This document shows positions 12,338 to 17,110 of a DNA stretch of 32,000 nt, in pieces. Source of the DNA: Wolbachia endosymbiont strain TRS of Brugia malayi (GTDB lineage: Bacteria; Pseudomonadota; Alphaproteobacteria; Rickettsiales; Anaplasmataceae); NCBI RefSeq assembly GCF_000008385.1, contig NC_006833.1, forward strand, positions 270,001-302,000. Reading direction: 5' to 3'. Numbering within the stretch: position 1 is the first letter of the stretch; each line of letters begins with the position of its first letter. The notes below the pieces were generated by a model, which worked only from the letters and a program-made list of their open reading frames with translations, did not search any database and had not been told where the DNA came from. The position numbers and the translations under genes are program-made.

Positions 12338-12708
12338 AATTGTGCTTTGAATAAACTCTTTACATTATCTTATGCAAAAATAGTATTGTCAAATTTAATA
12401 GAAAGTGCATTACACATTTTACATCTAAATTATCTAGCACTGAAGGTAAAATAAGACATTTTAAATGAGATCCAACTAGATCATCTAAAAGTGATAGACT
12501 TCAGGAGGAACGAGATACCGCTACTATGGAGCGAGTAATTGGAAAAGTTTTATGGATCGACAGAAAAAGCTGCTTAGAGAAGAGGTATGTGAGGCTAAGT
12601 CTTATTTTTACATGTAACCCTTGTATAATTTTTAGCATTGTATAAAGTGGTCGACAGCTACTGAAATGCAAATTGAAATATTAGCATAATATATCATGGG
12701 CAGATAAA

Positions 12709-13051
12709 GTGGATTTTAACCAACATGTGGAAGCTAATGCTTTAAAAGTATTAGATACTACGGTCAATATAAGCAAGCTAGTAAGTTTTTTACAAAGTAA
12801 CAAGCACATTGTAAAACTTAGTTTAAAATATGTAAGAATTGATGATGAAGATGCAAAAGAGTTAGCTAAGCTAACACATCTTGCTGCACTTGATCTAAGT
12901 ATGAACAGAATTGGTTACAAAAGGAATAGAGGCTTTAGCTAATAGTAATCTCACACATCTTATTTCACTTGATTTACAGTATAACAATATTGGTGACAAG
13001 TTAGCTAGTAAAGCTATCCTTACTTCATTGGGAAAAAACATAATAAAGTAA
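12709..13051 (+). pseudogene. RI-type leucine-rich-repeat (LRR) protein, frameshifted remnant
   Basis: The ORF 12709-12942 ends '...LTHLAALDLSMNRIGYKRNRGFS*'. Shifting +1 at about 12918 gives 'KGIEALANSNLTHLISLDLQYNNIGDKLASKAI...K*', with the stop at 13049-13051. The pattern 'LxxLDLxxNxIGxxGxxALA' is ribonuclease-inhibitor-like LRR. A further LRR-like scrap, 'LNEIQLDHLKVIDFRRNEI', lies at about 12462-12520. Confidence 0.65.
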
Positions 13052-13362
13052 AGAGAAACAGAAGAGAGGCATACCGGAGGCAATTAGATTAAGAGAAGAA
13101 AACCATCCAGGTAGTAAGTTGGGTGAGATACAGCTAATATCGCGTAACCAGTCACTGAGCCCTTCATGTTCTGACGATAGTGCAGGGTTACTAGACCGTT
13201 AATCTGGCAGTTTTGCTGCATAGTCACCTGTTATGTAGAGACTGGATATTAAAAGTAAAAAACGCATGGTAGTGTGCTGCAGGTATGATATGTGTAAACT
13301 ACGCCTCATGAGTGGCTCAGGCGTTTTATGAAGATAGACTTTTTTCTTGATCAAGTCGTTAA

Positions 13363-13436
13363 TGCGCTTGGAGGGATTTGAACCCGCGGCCTTTGCCTCC
13401 GGAGGGCAACGCTCTATCCAGCTGAGCTACAAGCGC
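13363..13436 (-). tRNA. tRNA-Arg (anticodon CCG)
   Basis: The reverse complement folds by hand as GCGCTTG TA GCTC AGCTGGATA GAGC G TTGCC CTCCGGA GGCAA AGGCC GCGGG TTCAAAT CCCTC CAAGCGC A. It forms a cloverleaf with a 7-bp acceptor stem and one C-U mismatch in the T stem. The anticodon loop is CU-CCG-GA. CCA is not encoded. Confidence 0.9.
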
Positions 13437-13448
13437 ACATCTGTTAAA

Positions 13449-14264
13449 TTATTTAATAGATAAGCTATCTAAGTCAAATTTTTGCTTCGGATAAAGTGTA
13501 AACATAATATTCCCATACCCAAAGTATACATTTTTGGAATCATTAGGTTGTTTTTTTGTCATTTTTTGATTTACAGTCCACACAAAAGTTACATAATTTT
13601 CAGTTACTGAATAGACTTTTAGATTCTTAGTGTTCGTAAATAATTTTCTATTTACCCATATTTTCCATGTGTCGGGGGAAAGGTATAAAATTGAATCTAA
13701 GCTTACTACCTTACTGTTAAAATTATCTAATATCTCCTCTTTTGCAGCTCTTGAAGATCGTAGGTTAAATTTTTTCATTTCACTGACCATTTTATTGACT
13801 GATTCCTTGTCAAAGAAAATGCTTTTTATATCATTGTATTGTGATAAGACGTCAAAGTTACTTTCCACTGCTTCCTTTATTATATAGTCACGATTTGTGT
13901 AGCTTGTCTTTTGATTACTTATAAAAAAACATTCCTTTGCACGCAGGTTTGCTATATCAATAAAATCATTGATTTCTTGATTGCCAACTTTGAAAATGCT
14001 TTCAAGATATTTTTTCTCCATCATCATCCCATACTTAGAATGGTGGCAAACCATCTCATCATTATCTTGTTTTTCTATATATACACATAAATCTTTGCTG
14101 CTTAGTCCTAGTATTTTATGCTCGATAAAGTCTTCATTACCAATATATTGTTGACAAGTATATTCTTTACAAATTTCTATACTTTCTATAATATCCTCAC
14201 AACTGCAATATGTACTAGCGTCGAAGAACAGTAGAGTGAAAATAAAAAACAGCTTTATTTTCAT
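13449..14264 (-). CDS. Hypothetical secreted/periplasmic protein (third gene of three-gene operon); possible PilP/GspC-HR-like C-terminal domain
   Basis: 271 aa with a signal-like N-terminus 'MKIKLFFIFTLLFFDAS' followed by a Cys-rich stretch. The C-terminal 'LDSILYLSPDTWKIWVNRKLFTNTKNLKVYSVTENYVTFVW' resembles the beta-rich PilP/MshK/GspC-HR pattern. It begins 4 nt after the upstream gene. Confidence 0.7.
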   Translation of the reverse strand: MKIKLFFIFTLLFFDASTYCSCEDIIESIEICKEYTCQQYIGNEDFIEHKILGLSSKDLCVYIEKQDNDEMVCHHSKYGMMMEKKYLESIFKVGNQEINDFIDIANLRAKECFFISNQKTSYTNRDYIIKEAVESNFDVLSQYNDIKSIFFDKESVNKMVSEMKKFNLRSSRAAKEEILDNFNSKVVSLDSILYLSPDTWKIWVNRKLFTNTKNLKVYSVTENYVTFVWTVNQKMTKKQPNDSKNVYFGYGNIMFTLYPKQKFDLDSLSIK

Positions 14265-14268
14265 TATT

Positions 14269-14877
14269 TCATCTACTTAGTATAGTATACCAGTCAAAGA
14301 CTATGTTAGCTCTTACTGTTTCTATCATATTACCATTTAAAATCTGATTCATAGTTGCAGTATCAATATTTCTCTCTTTGTTCAAGATAAGAGATTTGAT
14401 CATAACATAACCAGGCAGACTTGGAACGGATTGTAGAAATAAAAAAATGTGCTTATCACTAATTGAACTTAAATTTAGGGTTACTTCACTTTTTATCACT
14501 TTTGTGTGTTCACTTTTGTTGTATAGTTCAATTTCTTCAGGTATGGAAATTGATATTTCAGGTTCTAATATGCAGTACTTTTTATATAACTTGCCAAGCT
14601 CAAAATTTAAATTTGTAATGTATCTGCTGCTGTGTAAATTTGAAGAGGAAATTTTTTGCCATAAATCTAGGTTTTTATCTAAAACAACTTCCTTTTTTTG
14701 AACATCAGTAATTTGTAAATTAATAGAGTGTATTTCATTAATAGCACTCTGATTTTTATTATAGACCTTTCTGTTATAAATAACAGCGTACATTAGTAAT
14801 CCTATTAGTCCAATAGATAATAACAGATATAATATAAGCTGAATTGCAACTCTTCTTTTTAACTGAGAAACGTTCAC
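14269..14877 (-). CDS. Hypothetical bitopic membrane protein (second gene); PilO/GspM-like topology
   Basis: 202 aa with one N-terminal TM, 'VAIQLILYLLLSIGLIGLLMYAVIY', followed by a coiled-coil-like stretch. The C-terminal 'EVTLNLSSISDKHIFLFLQSVPSLPGYVMIKSLIL...VRANIVFDWYT' resembles the PilN/PilO/GspM ferredoxin-like core pattern. Confidence 0.7.
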   Translation of the reverse strand: MNVSQLKRRVAIQLILYLLLSIGLIGLLMYAVIYNRKVYNKNQSAINEIHSINLQITDVQKKEVVLDKNLDLWQKISSSNLHSSRYITNLNFELGKLYKKYCILEPEISISIPEEIELYNKSEHTKVIKSEVTLNLSSISDKHIFLFLQSVPSLPGYVMIKSLILNKERNIDTATMNQILNGNMIETVRANIVFDWYTILSR

Positions 14878-14881
14878 TAGC

Positions 14882-16321
14882 TTACATAGCCTCTCCTATT
14901 TTAACATTAATAGGTATATTTTCCTCTTCAGTAGCAGGCAAGCTAGAAATACTAATATCATAGGTGCGAAAATTATTGTTCAATTTTTTTTGTAATTCCT
15001 TATACTGATAGGAAACATTTTTACCAGGCTGAAAATTAAACCTTAAAGTTGTGGTGATGTAATTTTTCGCCTCATTATAATTCCACTCAAACGATTGAAG
15101 CTCTACATCTGGTACTTTCAATTTTTCTACATATTTAACCTGTGTAAGGGGGGAATATTCCATCTTCAGTAGAATATTATTGATATTAATGAAATCGTAA
15201 ACTTCATCTATTTTTTTTACGTTGTAGCTCTGGCTTAGCTTTGCTAATTGCTTATCTAAAGCTTCCTTTTTTGCTGATAGATTATCGGCAACATTAAAAT
15301 TTGAATGCAAATTTAGCAAACAAAGAATGTTGATTGTAATTAAAATTGAAGTGAAATATAGAAAAATTCGAGGAGAGTTCAGATGGAAGTAATTTAACAA
15401 ATAAAATTCTTTAGTTTCTTTTGTGTAAAAAACAGCTATTGGCTTATTCTTAAAACTATGAAATAAGATTATGGTATCACAGAAGCTATCTTTTTCACTG
15501 ACAGCTAATTCTGACCCTAATAATCTGCCTAACTCATGTGGGGTTAATATGTTCACGCTATTCTCTGAAAAATTTATAACTGATAAGCTAGTCTTAATAT
15601 CTTCTTGTACTACCATGCAAAGATCGATTGGGTCGTTTCTTTTGAAACCAAACTTAGTTAAGGACCGAATGGTATTTTGCACTTCCTGATATATTCCACC
15701 CGCAATAATTCCTGGTAAATTATCATTGGTAAATGGAACTAAGCGCGTAAATATCATTTTGTTTTCTTTAAAAACTACTTGTCTATAGCCTCCAGTTTTG
15801 GTTGCAACTACTATAATTTTCCAATTATTGAGATCATTATAAAAAACCTTTTTTGCTATGTTGTTTATTTCTATAGGAAACATTAATATTCCCTTAAAGT
15901 TAGAGCCTATTCCAATAAATACATTTAGCCAATATTCTACTAAACGCTTTGCTTTTGATGAAACAAGAAGGTAATACCAATTTTGGTTGAGTTTGTTTGG
16001 CTTTTCAACCAGAAGAACTGAGCTTATATCATTATTGCGAGTGAGGTGTTCCATCTTCGTTTTTGCCGATAGATAGGCGCTAATTCTATTTACTCTTGGA
16101 ATGAGCTGTAGCGAGTAATTTTGATCTGCATGGTTTAACACCAAGTATAAAGGTGCTTTTTTGTTGGATGAAAGACATGAATTTAAGTCGAACACTGCTT
16201 TGTCGTTTTTGTCCTTGACAAAATACCTTTTATTTAAGGTATTATTTTTGAAATACAGCAATATTGTGCCTTCTTCTCCAATAGAAAGCATGAACTTACT
16301 TTTGGGTTTTGAACTAAACAT
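14882..16321 (-). CDS. Hypothetical bitopic membrane protein (first gene); PilM+PilN fusion / GspL / MshI-like architecture
   Basis: 479 aa: a soluble N-domain of about 317 aa, a single TM ('IFLYFTSILITINILCLLNL', roughly aa 318-338), a short coiled coil, and a C-domain of about 140 aa. Strands 'FMLSIGEEGTILLYF' and 'IIVVATKTGGYRQVVF' resemble degenerate actin-like (ASKHA) phosphate-1/-2 motifs. Confidence 0.7.
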   Translation of the reverse strand: MFSSKPKSKFMLSIGEEGTILLYFKNNTLNKRYFVKDKNDKAVFDLNSCLSSNKKAPLYLVLNHADQNYSLQLIPRVNRISAYLSAKTKMEHLTRNNDISSVLLVEKPNKLNQNWYYLLVSSKAKRLVEYWLNVFIGIGSNFKGILMFPIEINNIAKKVFYNDLNNWKIIVVATKTGGYRQVVFKENKMIFTRLVPFTNDNLPGIIAGGIYQEVQNTIRSLTKFGFKRNDPIDLCMVVQEDIKTSLSVINFSENSVNILTPHELGRLLGSELAVSEKDSFCDTIILFHSFKNKPIAVFYTKETKEFYLLNYFHLNSPRIFLYFTSILITINILCLLNLHSNFNVADNLSAKKEALDKQLAKLSQSYNVKKIDEVYDFININNILLKMEYSPLTQVKYVEKLKVPDVELQSFEWNYNEAKNYITTTLRFNFQPGKNVSYQYKELQKKLNNNFRTYDISISSLPATEEENIPINVKIGEAM

Positions 16322-16498
16322 GTTAACAAAGCGTATATCTACCTAGAATTCAAAAAAACAATTTATTGAAATTCGTTAGACGTTATCAAGAAATATTGTT
16401 ATAGATTTCCACGGCAACATCATTTACATTATTATTTTTAATAAATTTATTATCAATGCTAATCTACTCATATAACAAAATTTATTCTACAATTTTGA

Positions 16499-16527: not shown

Positions 16528-17110
16528 CAACATTGTATTAATGTATGAGGTAGAAAATTAGGCAATTCTAAGGTACTATTTCTATTAAGATATTCAATTA
16601 CTATTTTTCACTATGTGCATTTAACCTTGTAGCTAAGGTGTTTGCTTATCCTATATTTTTGGCAATTTTTAATGCTACTGGGTGCCAATGCTTTTTAAGG
16701 TAATTGCTTCTTTTCCTATAGTAGTTGCATTAAGTTCAGCAGTATATCTTTTCAAGTTAACTGTTTCTGCAATAAATGATAAGAAGAAATAGATCTTAAT
16801 GTCGTAGACGGCAGTGCAATAACTTTGGATAATGATGTCAGCACAAAAACGGAAACAATAACTTCTTAAGCACTGCTGGTAACCAACTCCTCCTCCATTA
16901 TTGCCATCTCCTACAGCTGCACCACCTTCACCTCCTCTACTAGTCGAAGTAAAAATGGACTGTTACCTAGTGGATAGTAAAGTAAAAAGCCCACCCCTCT
17001 TGACCAAGGTTTTTAAGAGACACAAGAAGGCAAGAAGAACAAAAAACATCTGAACGCATTAGTAAATAAATGGACTGTAAGATAAAGGGAAGTAACAAAC
17101 ACTGCTTTTA

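Follow-up and report, generated by a model that had tools for sequence, protein, structure and literature searches.

We analysed a window of 32,000 nucleotides from the Wolbachia endosymbiont strain TRS of Brugia malayi (wBm; positions 270,001 to 302,000 of contig NC_006833.1, numbered from 1 below) and in it three adjacent minus-strand genes, here called g1, g2 and g3. The three genes are conserved in all Wolbachia that we sampled, and their products have so far been hypothetical proteins; a survey of 2007 had marked g1 as a signature protein of the Rickettsiales, of unknown function. A first-pass annotation made from the letters alone had read the trio as having PilM/N-PilO-PilP (MshI-J-K / GspL-M-C)-like architecture. 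Our data suggest that the trio is very probably the inner-membrane alignment scaffold of a pilus machine of type IVa (MSHA-like) in a very diverged form, retained under selection as an orphan with neither motor nor fibre. Families of homologues are written G1, G2 and G3. The genes, from the list of open reading frames (ORFs), are:

14882..16321, minus strand: g1, 479 aa, ATG start; wBm protein AAW70806.1, orthologue of wMel WD0771
14269..14877, minus strand: g2, 202 aa, GTG start; orthologue of wMel WD_0772
13449..14264, minus strand: g3, 271 aa, ATG start; predicted secreted protein in the PilP position

Three minus-strand ORFs of 479, 202 and 271 aa with gaps of 4 nt had been reported, and we found the coordinates and junctions as claimed. 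The g2 and g3 sequences match wBm proteins with 100% identity. Read directly, the g1/g2 junction is ...ATG TAA gcta GTG..., with a Shine-Dalgarno-like string, GGAGAGG, 13 nt 5' of the g2 GTG, and the g2/g3 junction is ...AGA TGA aata ATG.... A terminator scan returned no terminator-like site within g1-g2-g3. From this layout we infer that the three genes are co-transcribed.

The three proteins

Neither Pfam nor NCBIfam holds a model that matches g1, g2 or g3. We built an AlphaFold2 model of g1 from a 23-sequence alignment and searched it against the PDB with Foldseek. The model has a predicted local distance difference test score (pLDDT) of 86 and divides into three parts:

15422..16321, minus strand: g1 cytoplasmic actin-like (ASKHA-fold) domain, aa 1 to ~300; alternating beta/alpha structure, with PilM, FtsA and GspL matches
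15305..15373, minus strand: g1 transmembrane (TM) helix, aa 317-339; Kyte-Doolittle mean 2.06, inside the model helix 301-362
14885..15226, minus strand: g1 periplasmic alpha-beta-beta x2 (ferredoxin-like, PilN-type) domain, aa 366-479; from DSSP and from hhalign to the G2 family

We found that the best Foldseek matches of the g1 model are PilM of P. aeruginosa and T. thermophilus (5eoy, 5eou, 2ych; E 4e-9 to 4e-8, probability 1.0). FtsA structures follow (E 1e-8 to 1e-7), and then the cytoplasmic domains of EpsL and GspL (E 3e-7 to 1e-6); the matches to PilM, FtsA and GspL cover ~250-410 alignment columns. The rest of the protein (aa 301-479) has a PilN/PilO-type architecture in the model, with a TM segment and coiled coil held in one long helix (301-362) and then the alpha-beta-beta x2 domain (DSSP elements H369-386, H391-399, E406-416, E421-430, H436-450, E455-458 and E469-478). 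The single TM segment had been placed at about aa 318-338, and hydropathy gives aa 317-339. Because of this topology and the ranking of the structural matches we take g1, as modelled, to have the MshI/GspL architecture, with a PilM-like domain and a PilN-like half fused in one chain.

An exhaustive profile search (E<=1e-3) collected a G1 family of 1802 clusters at 50% identity. In the family alignments G15, G18, G178, R180 and Q181 are invariant and K175 is nearly so. The Asp positions of the ASKHA phosphate-1 and phosphate-2 motifs, registered by eye, are occupied by Ser or variable residues and by the conserved Lys (K175), in agreement with the earlier statement that these motifs have lost their acidic residues. 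The cytoplasmic domain is thus probably a non-catalytic scaffold that has lost catalysis. Profiles remained silent on the family: PilM_2 and the NCBIfam PilM model match none of g1 and its sampled relatives (10 in Pfam, 49 in NCBIfam), the NCBIfam Msh models match neither g1, g2, g3 nor the G1 family, and the g1 family profile finds no match among PDB sequences.

The 5' end of g1 differs between filarial strains. The wBm ATG is not a start codon in wWb (L084 8557-8586), where the translation opens CLSSK..., and the g1 proteins of wWb and wBp are annotated from Met11 (469 aa). The first 10 residues are probably dispensable or mis-called.

In g2, hydropathy places one TM segment at aa 8-36, which bears out the single N-terminal TM claimed for it. 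Over its full length g2 matches the second gene of a Rickettsiales type IV pilus cluster (L001) with 25% identity (E 4e-18), and it also matches the second gene of the L004 cluster. When the 69-member G2 family was aligned by hhalign with the coiled-coil and alpha-beta-beta part of the G1 family, the two matched with 74% probability (E 2.7e-5). This suggests that G2 is a paralogue of the C-terminal half of G1, as PilO is of PilN. G2 lies directly 3' of G1 in 71 fetched loci. None of the 69 family members matches Pfam PilN, PilO or T2SSM, the family profile finds only coiled-coil noise among PDB sequences, and hhalign comparisons with E. coli HofN, HofO and GspM were insignificant. The topology, the gene position and the alignment to the G1 C-terminal half point, indirectly, to g2 being a PilO/GspM-like protein.

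By hydropathy g3 has no TM, only a short hydrophobic stretch that resembles a signal peptide. A signal-like N-terminus and a Cys-rich stretch had been noted, and we found both, with seven cysteines (C20, C22, C32, C37, C60, C73 and C112), all invariant across Wolbachia. Its parts are:

13917..14207, minus strand: g3 Cys-rich N-terminal domain, aa ~20-116; seven invariant Cys, ordered in the AlphaFold2 model
13809..13823, minus strand: g3 'SIFFD' motif, aa 148-152; conserved across the G3 family
13452..13718, minus strand: g3 C-terminal beta domain, GspB/HR-like, aa 183-271; weak GspB/T2SSB matches, AlphaFold2 strands

Residues 21-90 of the Cys-rich domain are ordered in the model (pLDDT 76-88). 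Foldseek found no PDB fold match for this domain, and among the G3 proteins seen here only those of Wolbachia and Neoehrlichia carry it. G3 proteins range from 208 to 700 aa and have in common an 'S-x-x-F' segment (SIFFD in Wolbachia) and the C-terminal domain. Within the segment S148-I149-F150-F151-D152 is invariant in Wolbachia, and S148 is conserved to at least 90% in the G3 family alignment of 62 members. The C-terminal domain has the motif FYLsSIxY..W.iWiNG...l.V..V....V.f.W...FtL.PNQ.F, and its beta strands are modelled in g3 with pLDDT 66-89. The C-terminus of g3 (aa 189-230) matches the third gene of the L001 and L004 clusters (E 5e-9 and 6e-6, respectively), and the G3 family profile matches GspB (4wfw_A) among PDB sequences (E 3.2e-3 and 4.8e-3), with the motif ...FYLsSiiY..W.iWiNG...l.V..V....V.l.W. 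Four to five G3 members also match Pfam T2SSB under its curated cut-off (best E 2e-3). The NAYC/STYC before C20 is not a canonical lipobox, nor is there a TM anchor; non-Wolbachia G3 proteins carry AxA-type signal-peptidase I sites. We regard g3 as a PilP-position, GspB/HR-like protein and a candidate member of that fold family, on matches that are weak but specific.

In Ca. Neoehrlichia procyonis the third gene (L088 10046-10561, 171 aa) keeps the Cys-rich domain and a KSIFFDE string and has lost the C-terminal GspB/HR-like domain. This shortening amounts to a natural domain deletion.

Homologues in pilus gene clusters

We scanned one genome per species with an alignment of 14 closer g1 relatives as query, which returned 76 loci. 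These span Rickettsiales metagenome-assembled genomes (including UBA6187), Rickettsiaceae, Midichloriaceae, a Holosporaceae bacterium and other Alphaproteobacteria. Local phmmer annotation gave a recurring order PilB-PilC-G1-G2-G3-ABC ATPase, with PilT-PilT-TPR on the opposite strand. PilC was present in 63 of the 76 loci, directly upstream of G1, G2 in 74 and G3 in 58. In the cluster of P0036, a distant g1 homologue, the order is an ATPase with MshEN and T2SSE domains, T2SSF, G1, proteins of 217 aa and 208 aa, an ABC ATPase, a TPR protein, prepilin peptidase (PilD), two T2SSE ATPases (PilT x2) and a secretin. The P0033 locus adjoins a prepilin-type protein, PilD and two PilT-like genes. The precomputed Pfam annotation calls no canonical pilMNOP genes in either cluster, and G1-G2-G3 fill the slot.

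The proteins of the L003 cluster were annotated with NCBIfam models. Both PilT-like proteins score above the PilT/PilU type 4a cut-off, and PilB carries an MshE-type cyclic di-GMP domain (60.5 bits, cut-off 38). The secretin is nearest to MshL, with 200.8 bits, which is under the cut-off of 250, and the small ATPase is of the ABC-2/DrrA/GldA type. Type IV pili have been inferred for the Rickettsiales ancestor and were repeatedly lost in the crown families (PMC9352585, PMC10847448).

Because the homologues hold the pilMNOP position in more than 60 type IVa clusters, which we regard as the decisive evidence, the trio is read here as descended from a pilus scaffold, with G1-G2-G3 as the putative scaffold, in PilMN-PilO-PilP position, of the type IVa pilus that ancestral Rickettsiales carried. 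The architecture proposed by the first-pass annotation thus held, on the fold of g1, the pilus-cluster position of the homologues and the weaker matches of g2 and g3. Its other suggestion, a lineage-specific envelope complex, did not, since homologues occur in more than 60 pilus loci; the trio is a vestige of the ancestral Rickettsiales pilus.

In the pilus clusters outside Wolbachia we observed that G3 is always followed by a lone ATPase of ~245 aa, of the ABC-2/DrrA/GldA type and without a permease (L001 13914-14651, L003 10268-11038 and ~60 other loci). It occupies the position of the MshM/ExeA-type ATPase in MSHA and type II secretion system (T2SS) clusters, and is not found beside the Wolbachia trio.

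Compared with PilM-PilN-PilO-PilP of the type IVa pili of P. aeruginosa, T. thermophilus and M. xanthus (5eou, 2ych, 3jc8), the trio has the same gene order and, in its relatives, the same position beside pilB and pilC. It also shares the actin-like cytoplasmic domain (g1), two bitopic parts with TM, coiled coil and alpha-beta-beta x2 (the C-terminal half of g1, and g2) that appear paralogous as PilN and PilO are, and a third protein that appears to have a flexible linker and a C-terminal beta domain. It differs in that PilM and PilN are fused in g1, that no Pfam or NCBIfam profile matches, that the conserved acidic residues of the nucleotide site appear to be absent from g1, and that g3 seems to carry a cleavable signal peptide in place of a lipobox, together with an additional Cys-rich domain. 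The Wolbachia trio also has no linked PilB, PilC, PilT, PilD or pilin.

The MSHA pilus of Vibrio has, as we propose for the trio, a fused PilM/N-like first gene, MshI, followed by the PilO-like MshJ and the PilP-like MshK. The related alphaproteobacterial clusters appear to resemble it in their MshE-type ATPase, their MshL-nearest secretin and the ATPase and TPR genes in the MshM and MshN positions. However, no NCBIfam Msh model matches G1, the ATPase that follows the trio is of the ABC-2/DrrA type and not an ExeA/MshM-type AAA protein, and related clusters have two PilT/PilU retraction ATPases, as in type IVa pili.

With GspL-GspM and GspC/GspB of the T2SS (EpsL 1yf5, GspL 4pht, GspB 4wfw), g1 shares an actin-like domain (in GspL without known nucleotide binding), a TM helix and a periplasmic ferredoxin-like domain. 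The g1 model matches the EpsL and GspL structures significantly, and the only sequence-level match of g3 is the secretin-binding C-domain of GspB. In contrast to a T2SS, the relatives lie in pilus clusters with PilT and pilins, T2SSL and T2SSM do not match, and g3 is not TM-anchored whereas GspC and GspB are. Taken together, the trio appears as a profile-invisible module related to the known PilMNOP/GspL-M-C scaffolds.

Conservation in Wolbachia and the rest of the machine

Full-length orthologues of all three genes occur across Wolbachia, with lowest identities of 42% for g1 (P0030, a Logan contig) and 52% for g3. Supergroups A, B, D, E, F and others have intact ORFs, as do sister genera; these are real genes, not chance ORFs. 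The block g1-g2-g3-ssb-dapA has the same 4-nt spacings in wWb, wLs, a wMel-like strain and wVulC. Both Ca. Mesenet and Ca. Neoehrlichia procyonis have a g1 orthologue and the trio, which in Neoehrlichia consists of g1 (477 aa), g2 (207 aa) and the 171-aa third protein. Shortened copies were also seen (298 aa in Cimex, and a g3 of 199 aa in Listronotus). A 2007 survey listed WD0771 (g1) as Rickettsiales-specific, with occurrences in Wolbachia, Ehrlichia, Anaplasma and Rickettsia but none in Neorickettsia or Orientia, and WD0772 (g2) as Anaplasmataceae-specific (PMC2241609). A literature search on the wMel locus tags returned only this paper.

Selection was assessed among Wolbachia loci as pairwise Nei-Gojobori ratios of nonsynonymous to synonymous divergence (dN/dS). 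The ratios were 0.085-0.27 for g1, 0.12-0.20 for g2 and 0.09-0.40 for g3, or 0.09-0.20 without the low-divergence wMel-wVulC pair, against 0.07-0.18 for the neighbours ssb, dapA and tsaD. Purifying constraint was found in every domain, that of the g3 C-terminus included, and between wBm and wWb, both of which reportedly lack a secretin, the trio again gave 0.09-0.20. As these values are on par with those of the housekeeping neighbours, we conclude that the trio is functional, and probably repurposed. A strain-specific, fast-decaying remnant, which would have spoken against a functional system, is at odds with the intact orthologues across Wolbachia and with purifying selection.

Upstream of g1 lies one further conserved feature:

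16322..16440, minus strand: conserved region 5' of g1, probable promoter/leader of the trio (wBm/wWb/wMel comparison)

About 110 bp immediately 5' of g1 are near-identical in wBm, wWb and wMel, and the remaining spacer cannot be aligned to wMel. This suggests that the trio has its own promoter. A promoter scan marked sigma-70-like hexamers at 16456-16428 and 16389-16360, at a frequency not above chance.

Three other observations concern the distribution. Synonymous divergence between the wMel-like strain (supergroup A, L083) and wVulC (supergroup B, L085) is 0.08-0.11 over the trio, 0.16 for ssb and 0.28 for dapA, which hints at recombination between supergroups over the block. Among the g1 and g3 matches no cluster is named from supergroup C (Onchocerca, Dirofilaria) or J, groups reported to lack gspD; the trio and gspD may have been lost together there. 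Finally, the most divergent Wolbachia-like g1, that of P0030, has two ORFs of 295 and 500 aa without a family match 5' of it (L081 3015-5482), a context unlike that of all named Wolbachia.

The remaining parts of a pilus machine were not found with the trio. Within the window there is no gene or remnant for PilB, PilC, PilT, PilD, pilin, secretin, the small ABC ATPase or the TPR protein. When 59-75 relatives of PilB, PilC and PilT were searched against the window by tblastn, only the generic ABC domain of a type I secretion system (T1SS) gene was hit. Annotation and tblastn therefore agree with the earlier statement that no pilin, prepilin peptidase, PilB/GspE, PilC/GspF or secretin lies here. 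Motor, platform protein, pilins and peptidase were likewise not linked to the trio at any Wolbachia locus examined. A survey of Wolbachia secretion genes lists one 'type II secretion system protein' of 495 aa per strain (PMC7397232), and in a comparison of filarial Wolbachia the sole T2SS gene is gspD, which is absent from wBm, wBp and wWb (PMC8116671). The expectation of a genome without T2SS or type IV pili is thus borne out for wBm by the literature, but most Wolbachia retain the secretin gspD (PMC8116671).

Readings of the trio and flanking DNA

Several of our results weigh against reading the trio as a retained pilus scaffold. The PilM_2, PilN, PilO, PilP, T2SSL and T2SSM profiles match neither the trio proteins nor their relatives. 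The family profiles were also compared by hhalign, alongside controls, with single E. coli sequences (HofM/N/O/P/Q and GspA-M); this test, of low power, found nothing even for G1. The GspB/T2SSB matches of G3 are marginal, and the same profile also matches titin FN3 repeats, which we put down to an artefact of the strand motif. At pLDDT 67 the g3 model is of mediocre quality, and Foldseek gave no significant match for it. Among the approaches named in the first-pass annotation, HMMER/Pfam thus found no profile match for any of the three proteins, whereas AlphaFold and Foldseek recovered PilM/GspL for g1 and nothing for g3. Moreover, absence of the other components beyond the 32 kb is taken from the literature and not from a genome scan. 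Lastly, the C-terminal domain of g3 is kept in the secretin-less wBm, which is unaccounted for if g3 serves to bind secretin. Its intactness there suggests that g3 probably has another partner.

The missing components could mean that Wolbachia builds a complete pilus or secretion machine whose other parts are equally diverged and unannotated. Pfam, NCBIfam and genome annotation all missed the trio itself, and our analysis covered the window rather than the whole genome. We consider this unlikely, because PilB, PilT and PilC are among the best-conserved parts and are easily recognised in related Rickettsiales clusters, surveys of Wolbachia secretion genes list gspD only, and the tblastn search found none of them in the window. 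Quite unlikely, too, is that the lost pilus left the trio behind as a non-functional relic which has not yet decayed. Other components of the ancestral cluster are indeed missing around the trio, wBm has lost the secretin as well (PMC8116671), shortened copies exist in Cimex and Listronotus, g3 of Neoehrlichia is without its C-domain, and no named supergroup C or J orthologue is among the matches. However, the ORFs are intact in five named supergroups, others and sister genera, dN/dS is on par with that of ssb, dapA and tsaD in every domain and also between two secretin-less strains, and both the 4-nt spacing and the region upstream are conserved. Wolbachia genomes are also strongly reduced, so dispensable genes should have gone.

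Two further explanations look to other cellular machinery. The first-pass annotation had suggested a tie between the trio and the PrtD-type T1SS ABC gene, which in wBm is found 790 bp upstream in the same orientation and is also adjacent in wWb and wMel. We rejected a role as accessory of this exporter on synteny: the adjacency is lost in wLs and wVulC, where the trio, ssb and dapA are still together. The conserved region 5' of g1 suggests a separate promoter, and in more than 60 other genomes the homologues lie in pilus clusters and never with a T1SS, so we hold this role very improbable. Least probable of all is a role of the trio in cell division or shape, with g1 as an FtsA-like cytoskeletal or division protein anchored in the membrane. 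FtsA structures score nearly as well as PilM against the g1 model (E 1e-8 to 1e-7), and type IVa pilus scaffolds are reported to be recruited to division sites (PMC5285504). But FtsA has neither a TM helix nor a periplasmic domain, whereas g1 has a GspL/MshI-type TM and alpha-beta-beta x2, and the G1 family lies between pilC and G2 in pilus clusters.

On the reading that we favour, that of a retained pilus scaffold, the module was inherited from the pilus cluster still intact in free-living and early-branching Rickettsiales. The periplasmic half of g1 would pair with g2 through coiled coils and alpha-beta-beta domains, and the SIFFD segment of g3 would dock on this pair, by analogy with the N-terminal region of PilP. 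The C-terminal GspB/PilP-HR-like beta domain of g3 may reach the N0 domain of the secretin, where a secretin exists. The cytoplasmic domain of g1, which would have had PilB, PilT and PilC as partners in the ancestor, would now face a different partner. The present trio is probably an envelope scaffold with neither motor nor fibre, which would either hold or gate the orphan secretin or ring another envelope complex.

There is precedent for such a fate. In Helicobacter pylori an orphan PilM-PilN-PilO forms a cage around the flagellar motor (PMC10823254), likewise a pilMNO-type operon without other pilus genes that has been repurposed around an envelope machine. Unlike H. pylori, Wolbachia has no flagellum, and it has a PilP-position protein and, in most strains, a secretin. 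More tentatively, a PilMN-PilO-(PilP-like) module without motor or fibre may have persisted after the ancestral pilus was lost, in Wolbachia, Ca. Mesenet and Ca. Neoehrlichia and, by the 2007 survey, also in Ehrlichia, Anaplasma and Rickettsia, and may serve as an autonomous envelope machine with a new job. It could form a cage or docking ring for a trans-envelope complex such as the rvh type IV secretion system, or act as gate-keeper of the orphan secretin. Tomograms of wMel contain unassigned envelope structures, including a periplasmic 'hat' tethered to the inner membrane with two cytoplasmic densities (PMC12407924). We speculate that the trio could correspond to one of the inner-membrane-tethered periplasmic densities in these tomograms.

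Pfam and NCBIfam have no model for G1/G2/G3 (~1800 clusters at 50% identity for G1), which seems to supply the PilMNOP layer that had been missing from the pilus clusters of Rickettsiales; these clusters have been used in recent reconstructions of how Rickettsiales turned host-associated. In this obligate intracellular symbiont the pilus motor, the fibre and the peptidase have been shed, as has the secretin in filarial strains, yet the scaffold is under selection, which raises the question of what it holds. wBm is a drug target for filariasis, and a conserved bacterial envelope complex without a host counterpart is a possible target.

The downstream boundary of the operon lies at a tRNA gene outside the system:

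13362..13437, minus strand: tRNA-Arg(CCG), 3' of g3 (ARAGORN)

Two non-coding stretches flank the block. Between ssb and this tRNA gene, ~1 kb (12338-13361) contains short ORFs only; its wWb counterpart encodes a 71-aa fragment with a faint LRR_6 match, and the stretch looks like a decayed gene. In the spacer that separates g1 from the T1SS ABC gene, wBm and wWb have ~450 bp of additional non-coding DNA (16660-17110) that the wMel-like strain does not have, probably a degraded remnant.

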